Positions 28,817 through 64,000 are shown, counted from the first letter of the stretch. The stretch: DNA of 64,000 nucleotides from Escherichia phage BAU.Micro_ELP-22 (OR699282.2), one strand, 5' to 3'. Program-made: numbers and translations. The notes: a model not told the origin generated them from the sequence alone.

Positions 28817-28838
28817 GAATATACCTAATGCATATGAA

Positions 28839-30503: not shown

Positions 30504-30574
30504 AATGTTGTATACCCCAAGATATGATTTATGTTGAATTAGAAGATGATGCATCCATCAATAGGTAATAATAT
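30493..30574 (+). pseudogene. Truncated, frameshifted remnant of a copy of gene 31071..31382
   Basis: ATGAAGTATAAAATGTTGTATACCCCAAGATATGATTTATGTTGAATTAGAAGATGATG matches start of 31071 gene but has 1-nt insertion and early stop. Confidence 0.6.
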
Positions 30575-31081: not shown

Positions 31082-31382
31082 AATGATGTATACCCCAGAT
31101 ATGATTTATGTTGAATTAGAAGATGATGACGATGGGTGGAATTTGATTTATTCAAGAAGTTCAGGTTGGTACATGGCACATTTAAATGATTCGATAGTTA
31201 CAGATTATTTTGTAGATTTCAATACATTATCCGATGAAGAATTGTTCCAACAGCAATTAGTGATTGACACGGGTGGTTATGATGTCTTATTATTAAAAAA
31301 GATACAAAAAGCTGTTATTGATTTTAAGCCCATGATATGGCAAAGGAAATATTATGACCTCGAAGTACCATACCAGCAATGA
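31071..31382 (+). CDS. F2 paralog (103 aa)
   Basis: DEELFQQQLVID core. Confidence 0.6.
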   Translation: MKYKMMYTPDMIYVELEDDDDGWNLIYSRSSGWYMAHLNDSIVTDYFVDFNTLSDEELFQQQLVIDTGGYDVLLLKKIQKAVIDFKPMIWQRKYYDLEVPYQQ

Positions 31383-31920
31383 AATTCAGTACACCTACGC
31401 TAATGCCATCCTTATGGGACAAAAGTTAGCTTGTATTGTTGCAGCCTTATATAATGCCCAGAAATATCACAAGCGTCATTTCCACAAATGTATTGGTATT
31501 ATTCCATCGAAGTACAATACATATATTGCGTGCACGAGTCATTTTGATAAACGATTCAATACACCTGATACCCCAAATTCCCGTAGTGTTATTGGTCTTT
31601 TGGATTTCGCCCCTGGTGCTGTTATTGGAAAGAATGATTTAGAGTACGCATGGTATAATAAAAATGCCCCGTTAGTAATGGTAAAATATGATACAGAAAC
31701 GAACAAAACAATAGAGTACAATACATATAAATCAGAGGAAGAATTTTTCCAAGGTTCATTGCTTGTACCAGTGCGTTTGTTGTTTTATAATGTCCTTATT
31801 AGTACAGTACACAATAGTCCATTACACAAGAATCACAAAATTAATTTCAATTTTTGTGCTTATGCGATTGATGGTGTGTATGAGTGTTTAATGGAGGTAT
31901 TGAGTTATGAAGCTGAATAA
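31354..31920 (+). CDS. F2 paralog (188 aa; start uncertain)
   Basis: EEEFFQGSLL core. Confidence 0.6.
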   Translation: MTSKYHTSNEIQYTYANAILMGQKLACIVAALYNAQKYHKRHFHKCIGIIPSKYNTYIACTSHFDKRFNTPDTPNSRSVIGLLDFAPGAVIGKNDLEYAWYNKNAPLVMVKYDTETNKTIEYNTYKSEEEFFQGSLLVPVRLLFYNVLISTVHNSPLHKNHKINFNFCAYAIDGVYECLMEVLSYEAE

Positions 31921-36688: not shown

Positions 36689-36884
36689 AGACGTTTCATT
36701 TTTACAGGCCGCAGGGGGTCAAAAAAATTTCCGCTGAAAAACATGCTAAGGTATATGTTTAATATAAAGTTTTATATTGTGTTTTTCAGAGTACAGTCCA
36801 TGTTTCCTGAAACAAAAAATACCCCGCCCCCGCAACGTGCTCCTTATATTGGAGTTTACCTTATTAATTATAGTAGAGATTAAG

Positions 36885-37262
36885 ATGGAAATAAAATATA
36901 ATGAATTTTGTGCAAGGACATGGATGTACACTGGTGAGTTAGTTACGCACTCTAACTTATACAAGGGTGATTTAAACTACGCTAGGGACAAGATTTTAAA
37001 GTACTGGAATGCTGACTTTTATTTGATGGATTTTAGTACTGGGTTTCATGGGATATCTATCGAGATGCCGGACTATACAGTACTTGATGATGCTGCACTG
37101 TTCCAGGAGGCATTAGTATTTGATAAGAAGTACATCTGTACATTAGAAGAGATGATTGAATTACAGCGTAGAATTAAATGTATTCACAGGGAATGTATAG
37201 ATATCTGGTGCAGTACTGGTGAGGCCGATTTCTGGAAATTTTTTAATCTAGGAGAAGAGTGA
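36885..37262 (+). CDS. F2 paralog, subfamily ELFQESLVFDKKY (125 aa)
   Basis: Track ORF 36777 trimmed to ATG 36885; MPDYTVLDDAALFQEALVFDKKYICTLEE. Confidence 0.6.
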   Translation: MEIKYNEFCARTWMYTGELVTHSNLYKGDLNYARDKILKYWNADFYLMDFSTGFHGISIEMPDYTVLDDAALFQEALVFDKKYICTLEEMIELQRRIKCIHRECIDIWCSTGEADFWKFFNLGEE

Positions 37263-37618
37263 TGGAATTTGATTTTTTAATATCAGTACATACTTTCAAG
37301 CACAGTTATCAGTACTTTTGTAATTTAAACAAAGGTGATTTAATGCACAGTGCGAATGAGTATGTTCATTACACTCAGGGTAAATTTACATTCATTGATT
37401 ACAGTTCATTACAGTATCCACACCAAGATATGCCGGACTATACATTAATGGATACCGCAGAACTATTCCAAGAATCATTAGTATTTGATAAGAAGTACTT
37501 GTGTACATTTGAAGAAGTTATTGCAATACAAAATGAAATGAAAGAGTATGCTGCTTTGCATAAACCCAATGCAAGTATTAATCAAGAATACAAATTCAAT
37601 TTAGGAATTCAAGAATGA
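37259..37618 (+). CDS. F2 paralog, same subfamily (119 aa)
   Basis: ATGA overlap; MPDYTLMDTAELFQESLVFDKKYLCTFEE. Confidence 0.65.
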   Translation: MMEFDFLISVHTFKHSYQYFCNLNKGDLMHSANEYVHYTQGKFTFIDYSSLQYPHQDMPDYTLMDTAELFQESLVFDKKYLCTFEEVIAIQNEMKEYAALHKPNASINQEYKFNLGIQE

Positions 37619-37974
37619 CATATGATTATTCTATGTACTATTATAAGTTACCTAAAGGATGGGACTTGTGCTGTAATCTTATTAAGGGCGACTCGGAACA
37701 TGAGTTGAGTTTATATATGCATTACAAAGATTCTTGTTTTAAATTTATTCATGTATCACATGACGACTATGACTATGAATCTGAGAGTCTTATAGATTAT
37801 ACAGTACTGGACGATGGCGAACTATTTCAGGCTGCATTAGTGTTTGATAAGAATAAGTACTCCTGTACATTTGAAGAAATGGTTTCTTTGCAAAATGAAA
37901 TGAAGAGATTTGAAAAAGAAAACGTATTTAATCCATCCCCATCAAGAACGAATAATTATTATTTCAATATATGA
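37615..37974 (+). CDS. F2 paralog, same subfamily (119 aa)
   Basis: ATGA overlap; IDYTVLDDGELFQAALVFDKNKYSCTFEE. Confidence 0.65.
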   Translation: MTYDYSMYYYKLPKGWDLCCNLIKGDSEHELSLYMHYKDSCFKFIHVSHDDYDYESESLIDYTVLDDGELFQAALVFDKNKYSCTFEEMVSLQNEMKRFEKENVFNPSPSRTNNYYFNI

Positions 37975-37983
37975 GATTATAAA

Positions 37984-38475
37984 ATGACATTACAGAGTTC
38001 ATTGGAAAAAGCAAAGAAGATTCATGAGTACATGAATATGGCAAAAGAAGGTTCAGTTTACGGTGTTTTCAAAGACACAAGTACTCAATATTATGTACCG
38101 GATAACCTCCTTTATAATGACTGCTCAGATACAGAAACGTGCGTACTGGATACAGAAACGTGCATACTAGATACCGACCCTAATGATTATGAATGCTTCA
38201 TTAATATGCATAATGAGTACATGGTCTATATTAATGATACAGATACCATCAACAGTACTGACAGCGATTCCAATGACATTATAATTCCGAGTGAAGTACT
38301 GGAAGGTCCGTGGGATAGTGAAGAGTATTACTTCCAACAAAGTACTGTATATGATAATGAAGTACTTGATGTTATTATAATTATGTGGTACTTTAAAAGT
38401 ATTGGTTCTGGGAACTTCTATTTCGATTACAAATACGTAAAGAAAACTGTAGATAACGGTATTAACAGGGGTTGA
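37984..38475 (+). CDS. F2 paralog, subfamily MSLESALK (163 aa)
   Basis: EEYYFQQSTVYDNEVLDVIIIMWYFKSIG; very close to 39387..39878. Confidence 0.65.
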   Translation: MTLQSSLEKAKKIHEYMNMAKEGSVYGVFKDTSTQYYVPDNLLYNDCSDTETCVLDTETCILDTDPNDYECFINMHNEYMVYINDTDTINSTDSDSNDIIIPSEVLEGPWDSEEYYFQQSTVYDNEVLDVIIIMWYFKSIGSGNFYFDYKYVKKTVDNGINRG

Positions 38476-38476
38476 A

Positions 38477-38947
38477 ATGAGTTTAGAAAGAGCATTAGAG
38501 ATTGCGAAGTTAATTGATTTATGCAGCAAAGAAATTGTAGCAAATTGTCTTAATGGATATCTATTCAAGGAAGGTAAATCTTATTGTCGAATGAGATACG
38601 ATGACAGTAGTGAGTACATTCACATGTATGAAGAAAACTTAGATTCTTCTGAAACAACACTCAATGGGTGTGATGTTAATTTGGAAGATAATTACATGTA
38701 CTTCTGTCGTGATGCTGATATTTTAATACAAGATTCTGACATTATATCTGGTGCAGCAGAGAAACATCTTCCGTATTCAGTACTGGATAATGACTGGGGA
38801 AGTGAAGAGTTCTACTTCCAGCAGAATACTATCTACGAGGAATATGTGCTTGACAAGCTTGTCATTCTGTGGTACTTTAATAATACCGATTGTCCTAGCT
38901 TCTATCTGGACTTGGATCTACTACGAGTTATTAAAGAGGATATATGA
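38477..38947 (+). CDS. F2 paralog, same subfamily (156 aa)
   Basis: EEFYFQQNTIYEEYVLDKLVILWYF. Confidence 0.65.
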   Translation: MSLERALEIAKLIDLCSKEIVANCLNGYLFKEGKSYCRMRYDDSSEYIHMYEENLDSSETTLNGCDVNLEDNYMYFCRDADILIQDSDIISGAAEKHLPYSVLDNDWGSEEFYFQQNTIYEEYVLDKLVILWYFNNTDCPSFYLDLDLLRVIKEDI

Positions 38948-39384
38948 GTTTAGCAAGTGCACTTAAACTGGCACACAAAATACATCACTTCCACGATAAC
39001 ATAAAAAGTGGTTTCTATGGTGATAAAGTAAGTGCATTTGGTAATGAGTATTATCTATCAGGTATAAAGACATACTCTGATGATATTTTACTTATGGGCC
39101 ATGATAAAGACAATACTATACAGTACTCTTCATGTAGTCAATATACTAGTTTCTTTGTATATATTCCAGGTACTAAGATTACTTTTGACACATCAAATAC
39201 ACCTGTTGACTTCGGGGTACTTGATGGGCCGTGGGGTACTGAAGAGTATTACTTCCAACAGAGTCTTATTTTTAACCAAGAAATGCTTGATTCCTTGGTT
39301 GTTTTGTGGTACTTTAAGGAATTGAATTTTGAACCCTTCTTCCTTGACTGGGGAGCATGTGAATATTTAAGTACAGGGGATTAG
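38944..39384 (+). CDS. F2 paralog, same subfamily (146 aa)
   Basis: ATGA overlap; EEYYFQQSLIFNQEMLDSLVVLWYF. Confidence 0.65.
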   Translation: MSLASALKLAHKIHHFHDNIKSGFYGDKVSAFGNEYYLSGIKTYSDDILLMGHDKDNTIQYSSCSQYTSFFVYIPGTKITFDTSNTPVDFGVLDGPWGTEEYYFQQSLIFNQEMLDSLVVLWYFKELNFEPFFLDWGACEYLSTGD

Positions 39385-39386
39385 TA

Positions 39387-39878
39387 ATGTCATTAGAAAG
39401 TGCATTGAAAGAAGCAAAGAAGATTCATGAGTACATGATTATGGTACAAGAAGGTTCAGTGCCTGGTGTGTATAAAACATCTGATACTGAATTTTTTGTA
39501 AAAGACCGCGACGATTATGATGAGTCAGAGATACATGCAGAAACGTTAGTACTACACACTGATACGGGTGATACTGATGACTGTGAATATCATATGTACA
39601 ATCAGTACATTAGTTATTGTAGAGATGAAGATATTATAATTTACAGCCCTGATTACGATGATTATGACACAATCATTCCGTATTCAGTACTAGAAGGTCC
39701 GTGGGATAGTGAAGAATATTACTTCCAGAATAGTACGTTGTACAATGAAGAAGAATTAGATGTTATTGTAATTATGTGGTACTTTAAAAGTATTGGTTCT
39801 GATAGTTTCTATTTCGATTATGAATACGTAGAGAATACTGTAGGGGAAGATAATGTCATTACAAAGTGCTCTGGATAA
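39387..39878 (+). CDS. F2 paralog, same subfamily (163 aa)
   Basis: EEYYFQNSTLYNEEELDVIVIMWYFKSIG. Confidence 0.65.
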   Translation: MSLESALKEAKKIHEYMIMVQEGSVPGVYKTSDTEFFVKDRDDYDESEIHAETLVLHTDTGDTDDCEYHMYNQYISYCRDEDIIIYSPDYDDYDTIIPYSVLEGPWDSEEYYFQNSTLYNEEELDVIVIMWYFKSIGSDSFYFDYEYVENTVGEDNVITKCSG

Positions 39879-40296
39879 AGCAAAAGAACTACAGGTATAT
39901 ATTGAAGATATCAAGGCTGGGAAGTTCGAAGAAGTATACAAAGCCGAGAATGGTAACTACTACAAGGATAGTGATTTTGCTACAACTACAGTTATTCTTG
40001 GGTTGAATTCCAAAAGTCCCGCAGATTTTTCACAATACAATCCAGATGCAGAATTTATCAGTTATGCTTATGGTGGTGAAATCCGTTTTTATAATCGCAG
40101 CAGACCTTTAAAATTGAACTTTGAAGTACTGAAAGGTCCGTGGGATAGTGAAGAGTATTACTTTCAGAATAGTACTTTGTATGATGATGAAGTACTAGAT
40201 ACTTTAGTTATTATGTGGTACTTTAAAAGTATTGATAGTACAAGGTTTTATTTGGATTATGAATATGTACGTGCCGAACATAAGGGTAAACGATGA
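39853..40296 (+). CDS. F2 paralog, same subfamily (147 aa)
   Basis: EEYYFQNSTLYDDEVLDTLVIMWYFKSID. Confidence 0.65.
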   Translation: MSLQSALDKAKELQVYIEDIKAGKFEEVYKAENGNYYKDSDFATTTVILGLNSKSPADFSQYNPDAEFISYAYGGEIRFYNRSRPLKLNFEVLKGPWDSEEYYFQNSTLYDDEVLDTLVIMWYFKSIDSTRFYLDYEYVRAEHKGKR

Positions 40297-40607: not shown

Positions 40608-41080
40608 TGTACGAAAGTGATCTTAAGCACGCTGAGGAATTAGTTAATATAGTAAAGTTCTTTCAAAATAATGTAAAGTACTTAGACGACAAAGGGGCAT
40701 ATATTAGTACTATAAGTGTTGGTACAGATATTCTAGGATTAGGTAATGAATATAAGTACGAGTCCCATGATTATGATTTGGAATTCAAGTACTTCGAATG
40801 GAATCCTGGAACTTTCTATTCAATCGATGAAAGTGGGAAATATTTTGAATTCACCGAAGAAGACGTACTATTCTTAAATTCAGAAGATGCTTACTTCCAG
40901 TACAGTACTATATACCCAAATAGTGCATTAAGATCTTTAGTAGTTTTTAATGCATTTCTGAAAGAGAACTTTAATAATTCTATATTCATTGATTTAAATT
41001 ATGTATATGAACTAAATCAGGTGATATATATGGAGTCCAGAAAAAATGAGTTACGAAAGTGCAATCAAGAAAGCAAATGA
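40607..41080 (+). CDS. F2 paralog (157 aa)
   Basis: EDAYFQYSTIY core. Confidence 0.6.
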   Translation: MYESDLKHAEELVNIVKFFQNNVKYLDDKGAYISTISVGTDILGLGNEYKYESHDYDLEFKYFEWNPGTFYSIDESGKYFEFTEEDVLFLNSEDAYFQYSTIYPNSALRSLVVFNAFLKENFNNSIFIDLNYVYELNQVIYMESRKNELRKCNQESK

Positions 41081-41492
41081 TATTCTAAAAGTTGTTAAGT
41101 TCTTCAAAGAAAATCCTGAATACGTAGATGATGAACGAAGAGAAGTTTCTAATGGCACGAAGATTACAATTGATTCTTTATTTGATACTAGCAACAACAA
41201 CTGTAGTACTATTGAATTAGCATACGATTATATTTCATTGAACAGAAAATATGATGAAGTTACGATAGAGCGTCATGAGAATGAAGAATCTTTTAAAATT
41301 TCTGATATTTTATCTCTGAGTACAGAAGAAGGGTACTTCCAGGGAAGTACTGTTTATAATGAAGGAACACTAGACAATCTATGTACATTTAGTGTACTAT
41401 ATCAGAAGTCAGTACTGGATATATTTTATCTAGACACTGAAAAACTTGATAGGTTAGTTGATTTCGTTACTATAGAAGAGGCATCCGTTTGA
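41046..41492 (+). CDS. F2 paralog (148 aa)
   Basis: EEGYFQGSTVY core. Confidence 0.6.
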   Translation: MSYESAIKKANDILKVVKFFKENPEYVDDERREVSNGTKITIDSLFDTSNNNCSTIELAYDYISLNRKYDEVTIERHENEESFKISDILSLSTEEGYFQGSTVYNEGTLDNLCTFSVLYQKSVLDIFYLDTEKLDRLVDFVTIEEASV

Positions 41493-42025: not shown

Positions 42026-42221
42026 TCGAATTGAATACATGAGAACTGTGAGTGCAGTGTGGGACATATGGTTCACTACTAAACCAAAAATGGATTACCA
42101 TGACTTTAAGCTCTTGTTCTTCGTTGGCTCTAACAAACAGGATGTTGCAATGAAGGGTTATATTCAGCACTTACAGGAACTAATCCAGAAGAGAATATAT
42201 GAAAATAATAGACCAAAATGA
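42003..42221 (+). CDS. F1-type paralog embedded in F2 array (72 aa)
   Basis: FFVGSNKQDVAMKGYIQHLQELI core. Confidence 0.55.
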   Translation: MKYSKTFNRIEYMRTVSAVWDIWFTTKPKMDYHDFKLLFFVGSNKQDVAMKGYIQHLQELIQKRIYENNRPK

Positions 42222-42390
42222 CATTGCTAAACTATTCAATATATATTCTACTAGAATGATGCAAACAGACTCATATAGTACTGAATTCAAAGAGTTGAAA
42301 GTCCTGATGTACTTGGGAACCCAATATCAGGAACAAGTTATTTTGGAATATATTAATTCGCTGAAGAAGGATATCCGTTATGTACGATGA
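42199..42390 (+). CDS. F1-type paralog embedded in F2 array (63 aa)
   Basis: MYLGTQYQEQVILEYINSL core. Confidence 0.6.
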   Translation: MKIIDQNDIAKLFNIYSTRMMQTDSYSTEFKELKVLMYLGTQYQEQVILEYINSLKKDIRYVR

Positions 42391-43538: not shown

Positions 43539-43901
43539 ATGAACACATTAAGTATTACATACTATACAACTAAAAAATTAGTTACTTGTTTAATATCATT
43601 GAAGACAAATCATGATGATATGTTTGATATGGCGGCATATGAATTAGAATTATCAGAAGATGGCTTCAAGAGCTATGAAGTATATAGCTATGTTCGTGAA
43701 GATGTAATTGACACTACACTAATGCAAGAGGATGAGTTATTCCAAGAAAGTTTAGTATGGGATAATAAGTACGATTGTAACTTTGATTTCTTATGTTTAA
43801 TCCAGAAAGAAATGAAAAGAATCTTTGATAATTATCCAGTGAAGAGATTGAGTACTGGACCGGAGCAGTACAGGAGAATTTTATTCCGTTATGAAGACTG
43901 A
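43539..43901 (+). CDS. F2 paralog, ELFQESLV subfamily (120 aa)
   Basis: EDELFQESLVWDNKYDCNFD. Confidence 0.6.
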   Translation: MNTLSITYYTTKKLVTCLISLKTNHDDMFDMAAYELELSEDGFKSYEVYSYVREDVIDTTLMQEDELFQESLVWDNKYDCNFDFLCLIQKEMKRIFDNYPVKRLSTGPEQYRRILFRYED

Positions 43902-44226
43902 ATTAGTGAAAGTAATGTACGCTACTCATATTAAACTACTACTTGTGAAATTTGATTATAATAAAAAACATAATGATTTCTATACTTTAATTCGTGATGA
44001 AAATACATTCTCCTTGCGATGCAACAATATACCGTTGAAGATAAATGATTTTACTTCACTTGACGAGGGTGAATTATTTCAAGAATCATTAGTTTTTAAT
44101 AGTAATATAAAAATTGATATAGAAGTTATTAAAAAATACCAGATTTTATTGAACAAAATTATGAATTGTTATCCATGTGAAATAGGTGGTCATATGCAGT
44201 TCAAATCAAAAATGTATGAATTATGA
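43891..44226 (+). CDS. F2 paralog, ELFQESLV subfamily (111 aa)
   Basis: EGELFQESLVFNSN. Confidence 0.6.
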   Translation: MKTELVKVMYATHIKLLLVKFDYNKKHNDFYTLIRDENTFSLRCNNIPLKINDFTSLDEGELFQESLVFNSNIKIDIEVIKKYQILLNKIMNCYPCEIGGHMQFKSKMYEL

Positions 44227-44233
44227 GGTTTAT

Positions 44234-44770
44234 ATGTTAGATGAAAAAATGAACAATGGAACACAATATAATCATCTTAAGTTAGATACATTCGAATCAG
44301 CTATCAGTACTGCACAAGATATAATTGATATTATCAAGTTCATTAAAGAAAATAAGTTCAAATGTTTGAAAATACTAAATCGTTCAATGTACCGTGATAA
44401 CAATATTCATGTATCAGTACGTAGACCGAAAGATAAAGAAAGTGGGAGAGATTTCTATAACAACAGTGAGCAGTTCGAATGTGAATATGATCCAGAATTC
44501 AGAGGCGGTTTCATGTGTTACAGTATAAAGGATACCTCACACATTGAGATACGTTCATCGAAAGGTGGCATACGTACATTAGAGTTCATTGATATAGTTT
44601 TAAATCAGGAATACTACTTTCAACTATCATTATTGTTTCCTGCATACGATTTAGGAGTTCTATTCATGTATAAGTACTTTTATGAGCACTGGAATGAAGA
44701 CTTCTATCTGGACTTAGAAGATTACCAATTAGTTTGGAAAGAAATGGTAGAACTTCGCAATCCCTCTTGA
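44234..44770 (+). CDS. F2 paralog (178 aa)
   Basis: Track ORF 44186 trimmed to ATG 44234 (SD GAGG); QEYYFQLSLLF core. Confidence 0.6.
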   Translation: MLDEKMNNGTQYNHLKLDTFESAISTAQDIIDIIKFIKENKFKCLKILNRSMYRDNNIHVSVRRPKDKESGRDFYNNSEQFECEYDPEFRGGFMCYSIKDTSHIEIRSSKGGIRTLEFIDIVLNQEYYFQLSLLFPAYDLGVLFMYKYFYEHWNEDFYLDLEDYQLVWKEMVELRNPS

Positions 44771-44819
44771 CACCCACCGATTCTTTGTGATATAATCCCT
44801 TTATATTAATTGTAAAGGG
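44767..44819 (+). promoter_or_regulatory. Internal array promoter with stem-loop
   Basis: TTGACA 44767-44772, 18-bp spacer, TG-n-TATAAT 44791-44796, hairpin CCCTTTA..TAAAGGG 44797-44819. Confidence 0.6.
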
Positions 44820-44829
44820 TTATAACACA

Positions 44830-45306
44830 ATGTCCAAAGACCTATCATTTAGCAATGCACAAAAAATAGCAAAAGACATTATCAGGGTTTATAAATTCCT
44901 TGCGAATGTTACTGAAGATTTTTCCGTGGGGGAACATAAAGTTATTAAACGAAATGGATACCTTTCATTTATGGATGGGTTACTCTATAGTTCAGATGAA
45001 TCAACTTGTAGCATTAGAGTACTTGATGAAGTACCAAGTGGTGATTTTATTTCATACCATTTTCCAAGTTCAGATAATTTCAAATACTACAATCATCTTC
45101 TTATAAATGAAGCATTTAATACGATTGTAATTAACACTGAAGAAGAGTTCTTCCAGTACAGTACTGTGTATCCAGAGAGGATTGTTTTCAGTTCAGTGAT
45201 TTTAACAGCCCTTAAAAATGAACTAAATTCCGATAGTGATCATTTCTACTTGGACCTGAACAATGTCGATTGTATTATTGAGTACCTGGAGAAAAATGGT
45301 TTATGA
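44830..45306 (+). CDS. F2 paralog (158 aa)
   Basis: EEEFFQYSTVYP core. Confidence 0.6.
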   Translation: MSKDLSFSNAQKIAKDIIRVYKFLANVTEDFSVGEHKVIKRNGYLSFMDGLLYSSDESTCSIRVLDEVPSGDFISYHFPSSDNFKYYNHLLINEAFNTIVINTEEEFFQYSTVYPERIVFSSVILTALKNELNSDSDHFYLDLNNVDCIIEYLEKNGL

Positions 45307-45788
45307 TTACTACAGAATATGATTACTATGGTGTTTTAGAATTTACAGAAAATATCTATCGCATTGCAAAGGAGTTCAGAAGTCCTAAGCCTTTTGGTGG
45401 AATGCCTTTTGGTGGTATGTTTCAATACGATGAGTTCAGTTCATCTAAAGGAAGACTAGCATTTACTAATGGTAGAGGTAATCAAATCTACGCGGAGTAC
45501 TTTGATGATAATGACTTTCATTACAAAGCCGAATACATTTCATATTGCCCTGGGTCTGATTTGAAGATTAATATTGATACATTTAGAGAAGCAGTATTTG
45601 TTCCGTATAATGATTTAGTCTTCATGTCAGAGGAAATGTACTTTCAGGGTTCTTGTATTCATGATGTAAAAGTACTTAATGCTATGTTATTTTATGGTGC
45701 ACTACTTAATCATTACAAATACAATCAACGATTCTTTTTAGATTTAGCAGTCTACTATAAATGCGTGGATTATTTGAATGCAAAATAA
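45303..45788 (+). CDS. F2 paralog (161 aa)
   Basis: ATGA overlap; EEMYFQGSCIHD core. Confidence 0.6.
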   Translation: MITTEYDYYGVLEFTENIYRIAKEFRSPKPFGGMPFGGMFQYDEFSSSKGRLAFTNGRGNQIYAEYFDDNDFHYKAEYISYCPGSDLKINIDTFREAVFVPYNDLVFMSEEMYFQGSCIHDVKVLNAMLFYGALLNHYKYNQRFFLDLAVYYKCVDYLNAK

Positions 45789-46140
45789 GAAAACAATTCA
45801 GTACATGACGGATGGCAATGAATGCTTTGCTTCAAGATATGAATTCAACAAGAACCATTTCGTAACCTATATCCCTGAATATAATCAGTTTTATCTACAG
45901 ATTTACCAAAATGATTCATATATGAATGAGATATATTCTGAAATAAAAATCCTGGATTATAGTACTTTATCAGAAGAGGAATTGTTTCAGCAGAGCACTA
46001 TCAGTACTGAAGATGTGTATGAAATAATGGAATACCAGAAGGTACTTAAATATTTCCATGAAGTTCAGGATATACAAATGGATAGTGTTAAAGCGTGGAA
46101 TTATAACACATACGAGGTAAATTATGTTCGAAATGATTAA
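45778..46140 (+). CDS. F2 paralog (120 aa)
   Basis: EEELFQQSTIS core. Confidence 0.6.
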   Translation: MQNKKTIQYMTDGNECFASRYEFNKNHFVTYIPEYNQFYLQIYQNDSYMNEIYSEIKILDYSTLSEEELFQQSTISTEDVYEIMEYQKVLKYFHEVQDIQMDSVKAWNYNTYEVNYVRND

Positions 46141-46537
46141 AATTATGCAACGATGTATTGTAGACCAACACGGGATATATGGATATAGTTTAAGTGCTCC
46201 TATTGACAAAAATAAAACAACCTATGTAAGCTATAATGCTGTACAAGGATTTGATATATTCATTGATGCCAACAATAAAATCAAACAAGCTAAGGATGTG
46301 TCTATAATGACCCCTGACGAGCTATTTCAGTACAGCTTAGTTCTGCCTACCTGTATTGATTTACAACGTCTAGGAGCTATACAGAAGGTTTTACGCGAAC
46401 ATAAAGTACAACCCAATAAAGTCACACACATTCCAGAAACAATCTTCAAAACCATAGAAGTAGAAACTCCTGATTATATGTTAAGTGATGATGAGTACTA
46501 CGAGAAACACTTCCCTGGTAAAGTTTGGAGAGACTAA
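46124..46537 (+). CDS. F2 paralog (137 aa)
   Basis: PDELFQYSLVLP core. Confidence 0.6.
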   Translation: MFEMIKIMQRCIVDQHGIYGYSLSAPIDKNKTTYVSYNAVQGFDIFIDANNKIKQAKDVSIMTPDELFQYSLVLPTCIDLQRLGAIQKVLREHKVQPNKVTHIPETIFKTIEVETPDYMLSDDEYYEKHFPGKVWRD

Positions 46538-47019
46538 TGAACCGAAAGTACAGAGAAACTATGAAGTTCGCTAAGGAGTGTTTAGAGACAGTTGATTTCA
46601 TTTTCGATAACAAAGACTCACTGGGTCATCACTTCGTAATTACAAAGAAAGAAGATAAGAGATACAAGTGTGAAAGATTAGGATACAGTATTGAGTTCTC
46701 CTTAATGATTGATGGAATGATAAACTCCTTATATGAATGTGGTAAGACTGATTACCTTTCATTTAGATCATGGAGTGAAGGTATCATGTTCTTGAGAACA
46801 AATGGAGTTTTATATCCGTTTCTTGATGATTTATCAGAAGAAAGTTACTTTCAAAATAGTTTAATTTACACAGAAAAAGAACTCAAGATGCTATTCATTA
46901 TGTCGTACTTTAAAAAGTACTGCAATTTTAAATCATTATCTTTTGAGATCTCTGCAATGAAAGTATTCATTAAAAATGTAAAAGAATTAAAGAGGATTTA
47001 CGATGTACATAGAAAATGA
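46525..47019 (+). CDS. F2 paralog (164 aa)
   Basis: EESYFQNSLIY core. Confidence 0.6.
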   Translation: MERLMNRKYRETMKFAKECLETVDFIFDNKDSLGHHFVITKKEDKRYKCERLGYSIEFSLMIDGMINSLYECGKTDYLSFRSWSEGIMFLRTNGVLYPFLDDLSEESYFQNSLIYTEKELKMLFIMSYFKKYCNFKSLSFEISAMKVFIKNVKELKRIYDVHRK

Positions 47020-56656: not shown

Positions 56657-57508
56657 ATGTTAGATAGCACTGACTTTCGCAATTTCAAAAAGTATTCAGT
56701 TCTTGAACATATAAACGAATTTCTAAATTCTACTACACCATTTGGCATCAGTGCGTTCGACTCATACGATGGGTATAGAATCTTCTCATGCAATGACTTT
56801 CAAATTTCCGTCAAAAAAGGTTTTACAAAAGAAGTTGCAATTCGTGATGTAGTACTGTATAGCGATTCTTCCATTTCTTACTGTCATGATGCGAACAATT
56901 TTGAATCTCTTTCAACACCTAATTGTTCATACTACAAATCCCATGACACGATGATGTACAAAGAACAACATATCAATGGTGTTTCGTTCTATAAAACGAA
57001 CAGTGATAAGTCATATACATCGAGAGATGATTTTGGAAAGTACACATGTACTATGCACGCGGATAATGAAAAAACAAGCTACACACATTCATTCGAGTCC
57101 AAATTCAAAGAGAGTGACTTTTCAAATATCACTATTCAAGAACAAGTTACAGAAGAAGGTGTTGTATATCGTAGTACTGCATTCTTTCGCATGAAAGATA
57201 TTGTCACTGGTAGACCAATGATGTACAATATTGACATATATATGAAAGGTGATATATCCGAAGTAGTGATTAGTACTGGTTATCGTGAAAAATATACAGT
57301 TACGATGGAATCACCAGATGCATCACTAGTTCACCTCTTTAACAATTTATACACATTCCAATTCGAACTTAGTTTCGAACCCAATGAATATCAAATATTC
57401 GATGTATTAAAAAGTAATATTATTAATAAGTTAGAATATTACTACAAGTTAGGTGGGAAAATGAGCATAGTTAATACTATGTTACATAACATAAAAGAAA
57501 CATTATAA
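56657..57508 (+). CDS. hypothetical protein (283 aa)
   Basis: ATG 56657, SD GGAG; Ser/Thr/Tyr-rich. Confidence 0.65.
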   Translation: MLDSTDFRNFKKYSVLEHINEFLNSTTPFGISAFDSYDGYRIFSCNDFQISVKKGFTKEVAIRDVVLYSDSSISYCHDANNFESLSTPNCSYYKSHDTMMYKEQHINGVSFYKTNSDKSYTSRDDFGKYTCTMHADNEKTSYTHSFESKFKESDFSNITIQEQVTEEGVVYRSTAFFRMKDIVTGRPMMYNIDIYMKGDISEVVISTGYREKYTVTMESPDASLVHLFNNLYTFQFELSFEPNEYQIFDVLKSNIINKLEYYYKLGGKMSIVNTMLHNIKETL

Positions 57509-57523
57509 ATTGGAGGATTTGGG

Positions 57524-57817
57524 ATGGATACTAAATTCAAAGTTATATTTAAAACTAAGCCGTATATTCCGCATACAGCAGAACGTTTTATACCACATGG
57601 TGCAGAGGAAATTATTCACCATGATGGTACAAAGTTATATCTAGTGCCATGTTCATATGAACGTGCAGTAGAAATGTTACTCATGAATTCTAAATTATGT
57701 ACAAACAAGTACATTAGCTACTTATACAATGAACATATTTTAGATTTTAATGATGAAAATATGTTTATTCTAGCAATTGAAGATTTTAATAATTGGTACA
57801 ACATTATTAAAATCTGA
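57524..57817 (+). CDS. hypothetical protein (97 aa)
   Basis: ATG 57524, SD GGAGGA. Confidence 0.65.
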   Translation: MDTKFKVIFKTKPYIPHTAERFIPHGAEEIIHHDGTKLYLVPCSYERAVEMLLMNSKLCTNKYISYLYNEHILDFNDENMFILAIEDFNNWYNIIKI

Positions 57818-57825
57818 TAAAAATA

Positions 57826-57863
57826 TTGTGAACATATTAAATCTTTATGATATAATGTTCACA
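57826..57863 (+). promoter_or_regulatory. Promoter overlapped by 9-bp inverted repeat (candidate operator)
   Basis: TGTGAACAT 57827-57835 and ATGTTCACA 57855-57863 flank/overlap TATAAT 57851-57856. Confidence 0.5.
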
Positions 57864-57887
57864 TCTTTTTTGATAATGGAGATATAG

Positions 57888-58274
57888 ATGAATACAAGTT
57901 CAATCCTAAAAGCAATTGGTGGTGTTTTACTTATTGAAGTGAAAGGTGAACCAAAACTATGCTGTTTGGAAGATATGAAGAATACAAAACACTTCAGTAC
58001 TGGTCAGATTTTTAATGCCATTCGTGTTCTAAATGATAAATCAATCGCTGATTATGGTAAAGTTTGGCCTGTATATCAAAACGCAGAGGGTGATATCAGT
58101 TCTGACTGGAAAACCATCGAAGCAGTTCGACAAAGTTGCGATAGTGACTGGGACTTTATTGTCGAAGTATGTGATCAACTACAAGAAGATGTTCCAGAAA
58201 TTGTCGAACGAAAAGAAGTCCTAGCACGACTTGAAAAATTCCGTCACGGAACACTACAGTATGACACAATCTAA
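57888..58274 (+). CDS. hypothetical protein (128 aa)
   Basis: ATG 57888, SD GGAG. Confidence 0.65.
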   Translation: MNTSSILKAIGGVLLIEVKGEPKLCCLEDMKNTKHFSTGQIFNAIRVLNDKSIADYGKVWPVYQNAEGDISSDWKTIEAVRQSCDSDWDFIVEVCDQLQEDVPEIVERKEVLARLEKFRHGTLQYDTI

Positions 58275-58323
58275 TCTGCTTATTAAAAATATCTAATTAA
58301 CATTATATAAAAGGAATTTAAAA

Positions 58324-58629
58324 ATGGAAGACAATGGAATGAAATTTGATATGTTTGAAGGTGTACCAGAGTTCGATTTCAATAAACTTGAAAATGGTGA
58401 AGAATCAGAACTAGTAAGTGTTACACTAAAATCAGATACCAAAAAGAAATATTCCCCATCAGTTCGTTCACGTTCTCAAGAAGAATATGAAACCTTCATT
58501 GAGAGTATTCATTACGAAACGTTCCATCATGCAGATGGTACTCCGTATGAAGTTCGTGTTACAGTACTGAAGCCTGAAGTAAACCCAATGGAAAATCTAC
58601 GTCCTGTTTACTGCTGGGCAAGCCACTAA
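58324..58629 (+). CDS. hypothetical protein (101 aa)
   Basis: ATG 58324, SD AAGGAA; followed by strong terminator. Confidence 0.65.
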   Translation: MEDNGMKFDMFEGVPEFDFNKLENGEESELVSVTLKSDTKKKYSPSVRSRSQEEYETFIESIHYETFHHADGTPYEVRVTVLKPEVNPMENLRPVYCWASH

Positions 58630-58639
58630 TAAACCAAAG

Positions 58640-58669
58640 GACGGGATATAATATCTCGTCTTTTTTTTT
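58640..58669 (+). terminator. Rho-independent terminator
   Basis: GACGGGATAT..ATATCTCGTC stem then nine T. Confidence 0.8.
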
Positions 58670-58681
58670 GTCTGGAGATAT

Positions 58682-59530
58682 ATGAAACTTTATCTAATCG
58701 TTGACTACAGTAAGGGTTATTATGACTACGCAGAAGAATCTGAAGGGTATTGCTCGTCTACTAATGTCAATGTACGCACCAGTAGTACACATGAGCATGA
58801 ATCTATTACAAACCTAAAAGATTTCATCGCATATCGAGCATTTGAAAAGAATTTCTGTCGTAGTAGATATTCGAAGTTTGAGTACCCGTTAATTGATGTT
58901 CCTGATGAATTGATGTTCCAGTTAATGCTCACTGGAGTACAAGATTATGATTACATCGCGTACAATCACATTACTAAGAAAATTTATATCGGTACGTCAA
59001 CACATGACATTTCTATGTATGCATCATGCCCCGATGATCGAATGAATGATAGAAAATCATACTATAGTGGATCAGTTGGTTCAAATGATTCATTAAATAA
59101 AAATTTATTCTTTGAGTACGAGTTTGATAATCATCGAGGGAAAAAAGACCGAGAAGATTATTGTACTGAAATTGATAGTACCAATGGATATGAAGAAGTG
59201 AAAGAAGCGATAATGCCATATATCCTTGACAAGTACTACAAAGATTTTCAGTACTGTAGTAATTTTCTAATCCGAAATTCTATCATAATCGGTCGTCAAA
59301 GTACTGCATTCTCTAAGTACTACAATGATTCCCCTGTTGCTGAAAATGAAAACTGTAATATTCTCTCAATCCCACGTGAAGATATGGTATTCATGTTCAC
59401 ATCTTTCATTGAAGATGATGAGTTGTATGTAAAAAACAAGCACAGGTTCATGCCAAGTAAGATTGAGGTTATGAGAAGCTTAAGTGCAGATATCTTAACT
59501 AATTTCACTGAAAAAACAGAATACAACTGA
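58682..59530 (+). CDS. hypothetical protein (282 aa)
   Basis: ATG 58682, SD GGAGA. Confidence 0.65.
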   Translation: MKLYLIVDYSKGYYDYAEESEGYCSSTNVNVRTSSTHEHESITNLKDFIAYRAFEKNFCRSRYSKFEYPLIDVPDELMFQLMLTGVQDYDYIAYNHITKKIYIGTSTHDISMYASCPDDRMNDRKSYYSGSVGSNDSLNKNLFFEYEFDNHRGKKDREDYCTEIDSTNGYEEVKEAIMPYILDKYYKDFQYCSNFLIRNSIIIGRQSTAFSKYYNDSPVAENENCNILSIPREDMVFMFTSFIEDDELYVKNKHRFMPSKIEVMRSLSADILTNFTEKTEYN

Positions 59531-59560
59531 GACATACCATAAGTTTATGATATAATGTAA

Positions 59561-59594
59561 GGTGACAGCAGAATATGTTGTCGCCTTTTTTTTT
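59561..59594 (+). terminator. Rho-independent terminator
   Basis: GGTGACAGC-AGAATAT-GTTGTCGCC (G-U tolerant) then nine T. Confidence 0.7.
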
Positions 59595-60132
59595 AATCCT
59601 GAAAGGTTCCATATGGAAATGATTAAAGCCTAATCCACTCGAAAAGTAGAGGGTAGATGAGTAGTCCTTTCAGTACGAACAGCAAATGAAACCCGTTAGA
59701 TGATGGCATAGTTTGAACCACTCACGGCAATGCGGCTGTATAAAGAACTCCAATAGGATAAAGAGAGTTCCTCGATAGACATATAAGGATCGCACCTTAC
59801 CAATTATCTAAGGGAGATTTCATGAGAAATTTGCGGTCGTAATTTATACAAAATAGTTGCGTCCAAAATTCGTGAAATCAAATACAAGTACTGGTCATAT
59901 GGTATTTGTATTATGTGTCGGGATGTTTAAGACCGACGACCGTTGCTACAAGAACCGCGATAGAGAGAAACAGAGCAACCCGCTTTCGTCTCGTAAGAGA
60001 ATTCGTGATATGAACTATGTGAAGGCCACCAGCGTCAAACTTTTTTGTTCTTTCCCCTGCGGGGGGATGAAATATGCTCAAGCAAACCCCGTCAATATTA
60101 ATTAAAAGAAAATAGTACTTGTAGAATTAGAC
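59595..60132. other. Non-coding island, GC-richer than flanks
   Basis: No ORF with RBS; contains hairpin TCCCCTGCGGGGGGA near 60052-60068; no tRNA-like T-loop seen. Confidence 0.45.
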
Positions 60133-60753
60133 ATGCGTAGCATGGTAATTCTACTGATGTTGATGGAATCAACGTCACGTATATTCATTGATGTTTCCAT
60201 AGGAATAATGATGGCATTTATTAGAAAACAAAAAACTTTTACCTATAAGACTTTGGATTTTGTTGATTGTGAAAACCAATTACAAGATGAAGATAACTTT
60301 ACAGGATTTGTTGTTATTAAAGAAAAAGGATGCATTTCGTATATAAAGGAATTACAGAACGGCATTGAAGTTACTTCAGTCAAATTACTTCCTACACAAA
60401 AACCAACAATATTAAAAGCACAGTATGGTAATTATTTCGAGGAAAGATATAGTAATAATTTAATAAGTGTTAAGGCTCATATTATAAAAGGAGAACTAGA
60501 AGGAGAATATAGAAAATACAACCCACAAGGAAAATGTGTTTGGGTTAAATACTTCAATTCAGGAAATGATGTAACATCTGAAATAATTGAGTTTTTAGGT
60601 TTAACATGTACCCCTGAAACTCTTCATGATTACAAATTTAATACTGAAGAAGAGTTTAATCTGATGATGCGTTATGGTTCACATTTTAAATTTTTATATG
60701 AATATAACATTGACAGTAGTACTTTTGATAAGATAGTACAGAACTGTCTCTAA
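60133..60753 (+). CDS. hypothetical protein (206 aa; alternative start ATG 60208 with SD AGGAA)
   Basis: Long ORF; possible MORN-like G..Y..NG repeats (weak). Confidence 0.55.
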   Translation: MRSMVILLMLMESTSRIFIDVSIGIMMAFIRKQKTFTYKTLDFVDCENQLQDEDNFTGFVVIKEKGCISYIKELQNGIEVTSVKLLPTQKPTILKAQYGNYFEERYSNNLISVKAHIIKGELEGEYRKYNPQGKCVWVKYFNSGNDVTSEIIEFLGLTCTPETLHDYKFNTEEEFNLMMRYGSHFKFLYEYNIDSSTFDKIVQNCL

Positions 60754-60769
60754 CAAAAGGAATTATATA

Positions 60770-61291
60770 ATGTCGAAGAAGGATGCTTCGAAAAAACATT
60801 CAGTACATTTTAGTACTGGTAAAGATAACTGGACAACTCCAAAAGATTTCTTTGAAGAGTTAGATGAGTTATGGGGATTTACGCTTGATGCTGCTTGTGT
60901 TGATGAGACTGCATTATGTGAGAATTATTTTACACCAAATGATGATTCTCTTTCACAGGATTGGGGAAAGAATATAGTTTGGTTGAACCCTCCATATAGT
61001 GATTTGAAAACATGGTTATCTAAAGCAGTAGATGCGTATAATAAAGGAGCAACTGTATTAATTCTTGTACCATCAAGAACGGATACTATAGCCTTTCAGG
61101 ATTATGCTGCGAAAGTTTGTGATTGTATTTGTTTTATTAAGGGAAGGTTACGATTTGGTATCCCAGAAGAACCAGAGAAGAAAACAGATTCAGCACCATT
61201 TCCTTCGTGTCTGATAGTACTGGATAAGTACTTAACCACTGCTAAAATCAATTATCTTAAATCTCTTGGATTGGTGATGAAGAATTTATGA
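60770..61291 (+). CDS. dam: DNA N6-adenine methyltransferase, phage Dam type (173 aa)
   Basis: FTLDAAC...VWLNPPYS: target-binding/catalytic NPPY motif and overall layout typical of small phage Dam methylases; SD AAGGAA. Confidence 0.8.
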   Translation: MSKKDASKKHSVHFSTGKDNWTTPKDFFEELDELWGFTLDAACVDETALCENYFTPNDDSLSQDWGKNIVWLNPPYSDLKTWLSKAVDAYNKGATVLILVPSRTDTIAFQDYAAKVCDCICFIKGRLRFGIPEEPEKKTDSAPFPSCLIVLDKYLTTAKINYLKSLGLVMKNL

Positions 61292-61821
61292 AAGAAACAT
61301 GCGTATTAACTTTTGGACGTGTTAATCCCGTACATCGTGGACATGGTTTAGTTTTTGAAAAGGCCAAAACATTACAAGAACAGTACAATGCTGATTTAAA
61401 AATATATCTAAGCACCAGTACTGACAATATAAAAAACCCACTCCCACCTGAACTAAAAATGTATTATACAGAGGGATTTTATCCTTCAGTGCAAGAGAAC
61501 ATCTACACAGAAGACAATCTGTTTGATATAATGAGAGAACTGGATGGAAAGTACTTAGATGTTCTTTTCATATGTGGTTCTGACCGTATTGATTCTTTTC
61601 AAAAAACTCTTGACATGTACAATGGTAAGTTGTATAATTTTTGTAGTATAAAAGTAATTCAAGCAGGTATTGACCGTAATGTAAGTCAATATAGCTCAAC
61701 ACAAATGCGTAACTTCGCAAAAAATGAAGATTTTGATAGTTTTCGTGAGTTTTTACCTGGAAATGACGAGAACTTAAAAATACAATTATTTGAAGACGTT
61801 ATAAAATACATGAGGAAATAA
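61288..61821 (+). CDS. HxGH-motif nucleotidyltransferase (NMNAT/NadD-like adenylyltransferase) (177 aa)
   Basis: ATGA overlap with dam; FGRVNPVHRGH (G-x-F-x-P-x-H-x-G-H) and C-terminal SSTQMR (S-x-T-x-x-R) motifs. Confidence 0.7.
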   Translation: MKETCVLTFGRVNPVHRGHGLVFEKAKTLQEQYNADLKIYLSTSTDNIKNPLPPELKMYYTEGFYPSVQENIYTEDNLFDIMRELDGKYLDVLFICGSDRIDSFQKTLDMYNGKLYNFCSIKVIQAGIDRNVSQYSSTQMRNFAKNEDFDSFREFLPGNDENLKIQLFEDVIKYMRK

Positions 61822-61823
61822 TT

Positions 61824-62117
61824 ATGTCAGTACTGTTCAAAACCAATCCAGTACTTTGGGATCAAAATGAGCAATCAGGATTTCGTTCCATCCATGTTGA
61901 ATACAAAGGTAATACTGTAGTTGCAATTATTGCTAACAAAACTCTAGGAAACTGGACTGCACAGGTTGTTCCTATGGGATATTCTTACACATCTGATGAG
62001 GTTCAATTCCTGGCTGAACTATATCGTCAAGTGCCGTTTATCATTAATGTACTAGAAGGTAATGATACATTATCACATGCAGATGTGATTAATTTTCTTG
62101 GAAACTTGCATGTGTGA
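61824..62117 (+). CDS. hypothetical protein (97 aa)
   Basis: ATG 61824 two nt after upstream stop. Confidence 0.6.
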   Translation: MSVLFKTNPVLWDQNEQSGFRSIHVEYKGNTVVAIIANKTLGNWTAQVVPMGYSYTSDEVQFLAELYRQVPFIINVLEGNDTLSHADVINFLGNLHV

Positions 62118-62397
62118 TGAAATAAATCTTACAGGATATTTTTTACAAGAATCAATGATTAAATTTAGTGATAAATTTTCAGTACTGGATGGTATCGAAA
62201 TGTGGCATGTCAAACCACTGTTCCACACTTTCAGTAAAGAGCACAAAATGTTATTGACTGAAGCGAGTAAATCAAATAACATATGTGAAATCAAAATTGG
62301 TGTAAATGTCTATAAAGGGATGGTTATCTTTTTTGACAATAACAGCAACTACTTTTATATTGTTAAGGAGCATTACGTTGACAAATACAAATACTAA
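62110..62397 (+). CDS. hypothetical protein (95 aa)
   Basis: Track ORF 62098 (TTG) trimmed to ATG 62110; overlaps upstream gene by 8 nt. Confidence 0.55.
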   Translation: MCDEINLTGYFLQESMIKFSDKFSVLDGIEMWHVKPLFHTFSKEHKMLLTEASKSNNICEIKIGVNVYKGMVIFFDNNSNYFYIVKEHYVDKYKY

Positions 62398-62992
62398 TAC
62401 ATACTTCCGTTATCTTCGCTTAGGTCTTTCCCTACGTCCGATCCGTGGAAAGTGCGATTCACTCGCTGACCTTGACTATGCATATGCATTACATCATGAA
62501 GGTGTACAGTATGTATTGGGTGATTATGGTGAATTTGAAGAAACAAATGACAGTACTGGAATTAATGCTGGTGTAGAAAATCTTAACAACATTGCTAACA
62601 GTTCTCGCCATGACATTGTGTTACAGATTCAAAACTTTATTGAGCAGCACACAGGTAAACGTGTTTGGTGCTATGTCGGTACTGATGCACAAATGTCAAT
62701 TTCATTCGGTAACGATGAAGGATATGTTGCACAGCTTATTATGGATTTTGAATCTGAAGAGAAGTTTTTAGAATTCAAAGAAAAGATTATTCAGTCACTT
62801 GTTGATATGGGTATCCCCGAAGATAAAATGCCAGAAGTTCAAAACATTGATGAATTTGTTTTGATTCCATCTGATGAGAAATATGATGCAATGTTTACTG
62901 CCCTTAATATTCCAGGAGTTATTGTGGAGTACTTTGATGATGGTGATGATAGTATCTATATCGATCTAGATGACGATGACGACGATGAATAA
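62378..62992 (+). CDS. acidic hypothetical protein (204 aa), poly-Asp C-terminus, probable TTG start
   Basis: TTG 62378 preceded by SD AAGGAG at 7 nt; C-terminus DDGDDSIYIDLDDDDDDE. Confidence 0.55.
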   Translation: MTNTNTNTYFRYLRLGLSLRPIRGKCDSLADLDYAYALHHEGVQYVLGDYGEFEETNDSTGINAGVENLNNIANSSRHDIVLQIQNFIEQHTGKRVWCYVGTDAQMSISFGNDEGYVAQLIMDFESEEKFLEFKEKIIQSLVDMGIPEDKMPEVQNIDEFVLIPSDEKYDAMFTALNIPGVIVEYFDDGDDSIYIDLDDDDDDE

Positions 62993-62998
62993 TGTACA

Positions 62999-63027
62999 TA
63001 GCCCGACATAAGTTCGGGCTATTTTTG
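62999..63027 (+). terminator. Rho-independent terminator
   Basis: TAGCCCGA-CATAAGT-TCGGGCTA then TTTTTG. Confidence 0.8.
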
Positions 63028-63038
63028 TAAGGGGATAT

Positions 63039-63314
63039 ATGAATTATAAAGTTCTACAATATACATACAGTGTTTTGTTTGATTTACATCACAATGGAAG
63101 ATATCTCAATACAATACGAGAAAACACATTCACTCATACTATCTGGATTAATCACTTAATAATGATACGTGAATATTTTGTTAATAGTGAGATAATCATT
63201 CGTGGTAAAAAACAGAAGATAGAACAAGTTAATAGTTTTGGTGGTAAATTAGTACTATCATTTATAGATAGTAATACTAATGAAAGATATAGTATAGATT
63301 TGGTGGACATATGA
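63039..63314 (+). CDS. tandem family F3 paralog (91 aa)
   Basis: MNYKVLQYTYSVLFDLHHNG; SD GGGGA. Confidence 0.6.
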   Translation: MNYKVLQYTYSVLFDLHHNGRYLNTIRENTFTHTIWINHLIMIREYFVNSEIIIRGKKQKIEQVNSFGGKLVLSFIDSNTNERYSIDLVDI

Positions 63315-63577
63315 ATTATAAAGATTTCCTACTAACATACAAGATTATTCGAGATTTAGCACACGACAATGATAGCCCTAGTCTAGAAGACACATGCACT
63401 GAAATGATTCATACAATTCGTGGTAAGATTAAAAAAAAATTCAGTACTGTTATTATTGGTGATGACCATGCAGAATTTTCTGATATAATCATTAGACGTG
63501 ATGGTAAAGTTGAGGTTCAGTACTACACTGATTTTGGATTTACCAGTATTCCGTTGGAGATATTCCCTTGGGATTAA
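63311..63577 (+). CDS. F3 paralog (88 aa)
   Basis: ATGA overlap; MNYKDFLLTYKIIRDLAHDN. Confidence 0.6.
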   Translation: MNYKDFLLTYKIIRDLAHDNDSPSLEDTCTEMIHTIRGKIKKKFSTVIIGDDHAEFSDIIIRRDGKVEVQYYTDFGFTSIPLEIFPWD

Positions 63578-63879
63578 ATTTAAATGATATACAATTCACT
63601 TATAAGATCCTATATGATTTGTATGATGTATACCTTGTTAGTAACAAAATAGGTTCACATAACCCATACAAAGAACAACCATTTATTGATTTATATATTG
63701 AGTACTTAGATTCAGTAGGTGAATATATAAAAAAGAATTACAGTACTTTTATCGATGGAAATGATAAATTCGATTTCTATGGTGTGCAATCATATAATGG
63801 TATAATCCATGTTCAATTTCAGGAAATAACCGATAGGGGATTTATCGAGATTAAAGTTGTGAAGTTGGTGAATTTATAA
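63568..63879 (+). CDS. F3 paralog (103 aa), no in-frame ATG (TTG start?)
   Basis: LNDIQFTYKILYDLYDV; TTG 63568 with SD GGAGA upstream; may be decaying. Confidence 0.45.
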   Translation: MGLNLNDIQFTYKILYDLYDVYLVSNKIGSHNPYKEQPFIDLYIEYLDSVGEYIKKNYSTFIDGNDKFDFYGVQSYNGIIHVQFQEITDRGFIEIKVVKLVNL

Positions 63880-63889
63880 GAGGTTACAT

Positions 63890-64000
63890 ATGTTATTAAA
63901 TGATATACAATTCACATACAAATTTTTGTATATCCAATACGCTACGGTTGATGCTGGAGAATATCTCTACAGTGAAATCTATCGTTCGGTATGGATAAAG
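63890..64000 (+). CDS. F3 paralog, 5' partial (runs off window)
   Basis: ATG 63890; MLLNDIQFTYKFLY matches previous gene. Confidence 0.55.
   Translation, partial: MLLNDIQFTYKFLYIQYATVDAGEYLYSEIYRSVWIK

Follow-up and report, generated by a model that had tools for sequence, protein, structure and literature searches.

Where a gene for a DNA methyltransferase runs directly into a gene for a small nucleotidyltransferase in a phage genome, two questions arise: whether the two enzymes form a functional unit, and what the second enzyme makes. A sequence-only reading of such a locus had proposed an unusual, translationally coupled pairing of a Dam methyltransferase with an NMN/NaMN adenylyltransferase (NMNAT), possibly a NAD-salvage counter-defence module. 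The account that we consider probable is a different one: Dam lies beside an orphan adenylyltransferase of a large phage family, which is not an ortholog of NMNAT or CoaD, belongs to no recognizable NAD-reconstitution pathway in this lineage and shows no indication of coupling to Dam.

The window, the whole 64-kb stretch of DNA that was analyzed (G+C 34%), comes from an Asteriusvirus-type jumbo coliphage. The 6-kb stretch around the pair shares 98.9% identity with Escherichia phage vB_Eco_slurp01 and 94–97% with SP27, PBECO4 (96%) and 121Q, which belong to the genus Asteriusvirus, jumbo myoviruses with genomes of ~350 kb. Near-identical records already name the two genes "DNA (N6-adenine) methyltransferase" or "DNA methyltransferase" and "cytidyltransferase", so the pair is not new in itself. 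The genome papers on related Asteriusvirus coliphages that were checked do not discuss the nucleotidyltransferase gene.

The pair sits on the + strand in a unit of five or six genes bracketed by two terminator-like hairpins, one closing the preceding unit (59559–59587, +) and one closing the unit itself (62998–63022, +). Between the first hairpin and the first gene lie 545 nt (59588–60132) with no convincing ORF, and gaps of like size occupy this position in Munch and PBECO4. The first gene (60133–60753, +; 206 aa, PHROG 16210) is followed by the methylase gene (60770–61291, +; 173 aa) and the nucleotidyltransferase gene (61288–61821, +; 177 aa), both found as the earlier reading had placed them and sharing a start/stop ATGA at 61288–61291 (+). 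A downstream gene (61824–62117, +; 97 aa, PHROG 14956) and the last gene of the unit (62306–62992, +; 228 aa, PHROG 15575) complete it, and these two, like the first gene, have no assigned function. No Rfam families were found in 57000–64000, and promoter-like sites in the region show no excess (22, compared to a shuffled expectation of 19). A perfect 12/12 sigma-70 consensus (TTGACA, 17 nt, TATAAT) occurs at 61610–61638 (+), within the nucleotidyltransferase ORF. Elsewhere in the window, 27 paralogous small ORFs (63–95 aa), mostly linked by 4-nt ATGA overlaps, stand in tandem at 21506–29248 (+), with an extra copy at 42199–42390 (+), while other groups of paralogous ORFs of 120–190 aa occupy 29955–31920, 36777–40296 and 43539–47019.

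The first member of the pair is an ordinary small phage Dam. It matches nearly the full Pfam Dam profile PF05869 (E 6e-32, 111 bits, cut-off 28.1) and PHROG 111 "DNA methyltransferase" (E 2e-56), and scores 92.8 bits against TIGR01712 (phage N6A methylase), just below the equivalog cut-off of 97.05. In its profile matches and its NPPY catalytic motif (60986–60997, +) it is like the phage Dam methyltransferases of PF05869 and TIGR01712, with no notable difference. This match, together with the conservation of the nucleotidyltransferase in 562 phage records (tblastn), indicates that both ORFs are real genes rather than chance ORFs.

The second gene encodes a stand-alone HIGH-signature protein of the phage "cytidyltransferase" family (PHROG 3041/395). 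Translation bore out both motifs reported earlier: FGRVNPVHRGH (61312–61344, +), which holds the nucleotide-binding HxGH (HRGH, residues 16–19 of the 177-aa protein) and the preceding GRxNP, and the C-terminal phosphate-binding SxTxxR (SSTQMR, 61693–61710, +). An alignment of diverse family members shows invariant or nearly invariant positions at F9-G10-R11-x-N13-P14, G18-H19, S42, K49-N50-P51-L52, G97-x-D99-R100, Y111-N112-G113, S136 and R141. Among these, KNPL (61432–61443, +) is a family-invariant loop after strand 2, with NPF as its counterpart in NadM and KKP in PPAT; GSDR (61576–61587, +) is family-invariant and follows strand 4; and YNG (61618–61626, +) is nearly invariant and, to our knowledge, matches no NMNAT or PPAT motif.

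The SSTxxR motif is of the type found in adenylyltransferases (NMNAT, PPAT), while cytidylyltransferases carry a motif of the RTEGISTT type. We infer adenylyl rather than cytidylyl specificity, and the name "cytidyltransferase" is probably a misnomer because of this motif. The protein probably represents the stand-alone catalytic domain of a very large, phage-specific and experimentally uncharacterized family with the HxGH ... SxTxxR signature, and most likely an adenylyltransferase. Its motifs and fold predict an enzyme that uses ATP to adenylylate the phosphate group of a second substrate, with release of PPi, the chemistry probably being ATP + X-phosphate -> ADP-X + PPi.

Profile methods slightly favor NMNAT-type enzymes, yet place the 177-aa protein in no known class. 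Against Pfam CTP_transf_like PF01467 it scores 17.3 bits, below the gathering threshold of 21, which is passed by its homologs in P-SSM2 (44.7 bits) and many metagenomic members; against Pfam FAD_syn it scores 17 bits. The best NCBIfam match is to the NadD model TIGR00482, at 20 bits (cut-off 112.45) and over the N-terminal 21 residues only. The match to PHROG 3041 "cytidyltransferase" reaches E 3e-58, and a direct sequence search of the PDB returned no match. When 75 family members were scanned singly against NCBIfam, weak matches were obtained to NadD in 69 (best E 4e-7) and to a generic cytidylyl/adenylyl domain in 67, and weak sub-threshold matches to NadR NMNAT in 56, NadM PRK01153 in 43 and CoaD in 40 (best E 2e-4). 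The NadM/NadR-type models (TIGR01527, TIGR01526 and PRK01153) matched below threshold in 19–56 of the 75, and no curated NCBIfam cut-off was approached by any of these members or by the 177-aa protein. We aligned the family profile with four references using hhalign, and the best was E. coli NadR (E 4e-5, probability 72%, 35 columns), followed by the NadM-Nudix of phage CBB (E 1e-4, 53%, 55 columns), E. coli NadD (E 2e-3, 17%, 32 columns) and E. coli CoaD (E 2e-3, 13%, 51 columns); all four alignments are limited to the N-terminal motif region. A match to PHROG 395 was also considered as evidence for NMNAT and set aside as uninformative, because that cluster contains both NadM-Nudix proteins and cyanophage members of the present family.

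The AlphaFold2 model is a confident one (75-sequence alignment; pLDDT 95.5, pTM 0.89) and has a five-stranded Rossmann-like domain followed by C-terminal helices, a fold common to NMNAT, PPAT, FADS and GCT. Foldseek searches with the model place PPAT/CoaD on top (E 7e-7, TM up to 0.74), and the GenBank annotators of phage Muenster recorded a 99.9% HHpred match to E. coli PPAT 5JBN. The motif picture also reads as mixed. GRVNPVHRGH aligns with GRFQMAHSGH of the phage NadM-Nudix, and the GRxxPxHxGH register is that of NadM/NadR, while the first HxGH position is T rather than H in 200 of 254 family members, a PPAT-like state, and the KKNPL loop is PPAT-like as well: in the consensus of the family, FNPPTxGH lines up with FDPITxGH of PPAT, and KKKNPL with PKKNPLF of Pseudomonas PPAT. 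F79 may be the counterpart of the stacking tryptophan of NMNAT, which is a guess. We conclude that the proteins form a family of their own, about as far from NMNAT as from PPAT.

With the NadD model so far from its cut-off, PPAT on top by fold and the hhalign matches confined to the N-terminus, the assignment to NMNAT is not sustained. A non-NAD class such as CoaD, which the sequence-only reading had named as the outcome that would count against it, fared unevenly: the curated CoaD model is matched below threshold only and the hhalign probability is low, yet the Foldseek and HHpred results both point to PPAT. Among named substrates NMN/NaMN ranks first, at a level that we would call tentative; 4′-phosphopantetheine is considerably less likely, and the remaining probability goes to a family-specific compound that is not yet described.

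Possible, and in our judgment rather doubtful, is the proposal that the second gene encodes a bona fide NMN/NaMN adenylyltransferase that tops up NAD+ in infection and forms a counter-defence module with Dam. Such an enzyme would supply NAD to enzymes of the phage that consume it or act against defences that deplete NAD, and the slight preference of the profile methods and the register of the HxGH region are consistent with it. The specific models are all far under threshold, however, PPAT is equally close by fold, and the T that most members carry at the first HxGH position also counts against it. Compared to the NadM-type NMNATs (M. jannaschii MJ0541, 1f9a; Francisella NadM-Nudix, 2qjt; and the phage NatV/NadM-Nudix of NARP2), the protein is 14–17% identical, lacks a Nudix domain, has no Nampt partner in PBECO4, aligns by hhalign with the phage NadM-Nudix over 55 columns only and reaches no NadM or NadR model at threshold, while GSDR and YNG are specific to its own family. 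With the NadR-like NMNAT of NARP3 (Bas30_86, encoded with a PnuC transporter; PMC13464706) it shares a HIGH-motif NMNAT domain, and E. coli NadR gave the best of the four hhalign E-values over 35 columns only, but the window protein has no ribosylnicotinamide kinase domain.

The gene content of related phages bears on the same proposal. In the related jumbo phage CBB, CBB_113 is a bifunctional NadM-Nudix and CBB_115 a Nampt, both situated close to a Sir2-like gene, and searches with these two as queries found canonical NadM-Nudix and Nampt in Munch, Muenster, RaK2, XaC1, EJP2 and Erwinia, Serratia and Yersinia jumbo phages. In the whole genome of PBECO4 neither was found (tblastn, E up to 1; annotation), so the salvage partner whose search had been suggested as a check is missing in this relative. 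Nor did E. coli NadR give a significant tblastn match to PBECO4 or the window, its best hit (E 0.016) falling in an unrelated region; E. coli NadD and CoaD gave none to PBECO4, and the PBECO4 annotation contains no NadD, CoaD, PnuC or NadR. PBECO4 keeps a Sir2 gene (gp095) beside a stand-alone Nudix gene (gp094), and encodes two further Nudix proteins together with one macro-domain and one WGR-domain protein. In CBB, GAP32, Munch, RaK2 and XaC1, NadM-Nudix and Nampt lie beside Sir2 and PhoH, and this pair is absent from PBECO4. It looks as if NARP2 was lost lineage-specifically in PBECO4 (Asteriusvirus).

In the published NARP2 and NARP3 pathways, the NMNAT step is in each case paired with an NMN-supplying step. 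PBECO4 has neither Nampt and Nmnat in one genome, as KVP40 does for NARP2, nor a bifunctional NadR-like enzyme encoded beside PnuC, as in NARP3. In the Asteriusvirus lineage no phage gene would supply an NMNAT with NMN. The reverse situation is seen in Munch, Muenster, XaC1 and Erwinia phage pEa_SNUABM_50, which carry an ortholog of the small nucleotidyltransferase plus NadM-Nudix and Nampt at a separate locus; the small enzyme therefore coexists with a complete NARP2-type pair, and its retention in these sister phages argues for a different role. Since the family is present in PBECO4 without a partner and beside the full pair in sister phages, its distribution is, on limited data, independent of the known phage NAD-reconstitution pathways NARP1–3. 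NADase defences leave ADP-ribose and nicotinamide, and for this reason NMNAT alone would not reconstitute NAD+. During infection by phage PA5oct, which has a gene of this nucleotidyltransferase family, the host NAD operon pncA-pncB1-nadE is the one most strongly upregulated (PMC7318152).

The wider family is the setting for another reading. Most of the 562 phage records, 460 in number, are from T4-like cyanophages (375 Synechococcus, 61 "Cyanophage" and 24 Prochlorococcus), and the others include RaK2-like jumbo phages of Escherichia, Klebsiella, Salmonella, Erwinia, Yersinia and Xanthomonas, together with PA5oct-like Pseudomonas phages. An exhaustive profile search (E up to 1e-30) returned at least 2,385 clusters at 50% identity. 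The best 150 of these have a median length of 549 aa and carry the nucleotidyltransferase domain at the N-terminus, with an SH3-like module and then long charged tails behind it. Multidomain proteins make up most of the family; most representatives are 400–1,341 aa long, with tails that are acidic and then basic (PHROG 23027, 7595). The C-terminal modules of PHROG 23027 and 7595 are shared with neighboring Zeta-toxin/AAA_33 kinase-like proteins, and some members are fused to a PAP2 phosphatase, DUF5824 or a pol-beta-type nucleotidyltransferase.

Public databases know the family as "cytidyltransferase", "NMNAT homologue", "ribonucleotide reductase A" and "nucleotidyltransferase", and the literature searched yielded neither an experiment behind any of these names nor a characterized member; a survey of polyvalent proteins does not list the domain. 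The label "ribonucleotide reductase A" is wrong in KM507819 (121Q gene 418), MH791411, PP777464, KF156339 and KF156340. Its source is likely the C-terminal module of cyanophage homologs that matches PHROG 4808, a type of module absent from the window protein.

In cyanophages, the conserved and sometimes fused partner of the nucleotidyltransferase is DUF6267 (PF19782), which lies immediately upstream of the "cytidyltransferase" wherever coordinates are comparable. The two genes overlap by 4 nt in a marine contig (3950–5203 and 5200–5790) and in Synechococcus phage S-WAM1 (DUF6267 2995–4188, nucleotidyltransferase 4185–5240, positions in the retrieved segment), and the PHROG 455 profile joins the two in a fusion, DUF6267 spanning 15–341 and the nucleotidyltransferase domain ~420–600. 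DUF6267 occurs in 462 phage records, almost all from cyanophages, and in at least 8,000 protein clusters; no homolog was found in the window or PBECO4, and no literature on it was found. The idea that DUF6267 is ligase-like was supported by none of the tests run.

About half of the non-jumbo nucleotidyltransferases, and about half of the DUF6267 proteins, start with MK[STN][FY]xx[FY][LI]xE, which resembles the T4 capsid-targeting sequence MKTYQEFIAE. The 177-aa window protein has no such extension (it starts MKETCVLTFGR...). The nucleotidyltransferase protein has been detected in two cyanophage virion proteomes (PMC10665884; PMC9146016), which, with the capsid-targeting-like N-termini of marine members, suggests that marine phages use the enzyme at or soon after entry. 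It is conceivable, and we put it forward with reserve, that the family is a new class of phage adenylyltransferase acting on neither NMN nor phosphopantetheine and serving as a host-takeover or counter-defence effector. It would be delivered inside the virion in marine phages, where the capsid-targeting-like N-terminus is present and fusion to DUF6267, PAP2 phosphatase or long basic tails is frequent, and would be a free domain beside Dam in the RaK2-like jumbo phages.

We regard it as unlikely that the enzyme is PPAT-like and makes dephospho-CoA or a related pantetheine nucleotide. The structural matches and the alignment of the two consensus motifs with those of PPAT would favor this, as would an acyl-carrier-protein-like gene in PBECO4 and CBB: PBECO4 gp062 (40795–41097 of the genome segment) weakly matches the acyl-carrier-protein-like CBB_163 (E 4e-8), and phages of the CBB/PBECO4 type may encode an ACP homolog. 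The CoaD HMM and hhalign matches are nevertheless the weakest among the candidates, and the window protein has HxGH where PPAT has TxGH, with an arginine in GRxNP where PPAT has GTFDP.

The preferred reading, an orphan adenylyltransferase next to Dam, also has to account for the gene order. The ATGA overlap is present as described and is nothing special in itself: among the 152 junctions between neighboring + strand ORFs of the window, 27 are 4-nt overlaps, 25 of them ATGA, making this the commonest junction type in the window. Dam precedes the nucleotidyltransferase with a 4-nt overlap in Asteriusvirus and in Klebsiella phage Muenster (58% protein identity), with an 8-nt overlap in Salmonella phage Munch (52%) and across a 24-nt gap in Erwinia phage pEa_SNUABM_50 (33%). 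In XaC1, four small genes separate the two, and in PA5oct-like phages and cyanophages no Dam adjoins the nucleotidyltransferase gene; adjacency to Dam is conserved only within RaK2-like jumbo phages. The flanking positions, compared by size and position only, hold genes of like size in relatives (that of 60133–60753 in Munch and the Erwinia phage; that of 61824–62117 in Munch, Muenster and the Erwinia phage), which suggests block synteny. Since ATGA overlaps are the commonest junction and the block appears syntenic, we read the pairing as inherited gene order joined by the default junction of the genome, and not as evidence for joint work of the enzymes; what had been called an unusual pairing is synteny at the level of a clade.

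That Dam and the nucleotidyltransferase act jointly, for example in DNA modification or protection with a stoichiometry enforced by translational coupling, is very improbable: the order is kept across four jumbo-phage genera with 4–8-nt overlaps in three of them, but the majority of family members belong to other phages and lack a neighboring Dam gene, the pair is interrupted in XaC1 and spaced apart in the Erwinia phage, the flanks and the common junction type point to simple synteny, and no HIGH-type nucleotidyltransferase is known to us to take part in modifying DNA. A link to RNA repair was also considered and rejected; the neighboring "tRNA ligase" of P-SSM2 is class II aminoacyl-tRNA-synthetase-like and not an RNA ligase, and the Rnl1 and Pnk genes of PBECO4 lie 18–22 genes distant.

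The weight of this locus lies not with the pair itself, and instead with the family behind its second gene, which is abundant in cyanophages and recurs in enterobacterial and Pseudomonas jumbo phages. The short, 177-aa stand-alone version is directly testable. Its substrate would show whether these phages have one more way of entering NAD (or CoA) metabolism or form a nucleotide-linked compound that is new to science.
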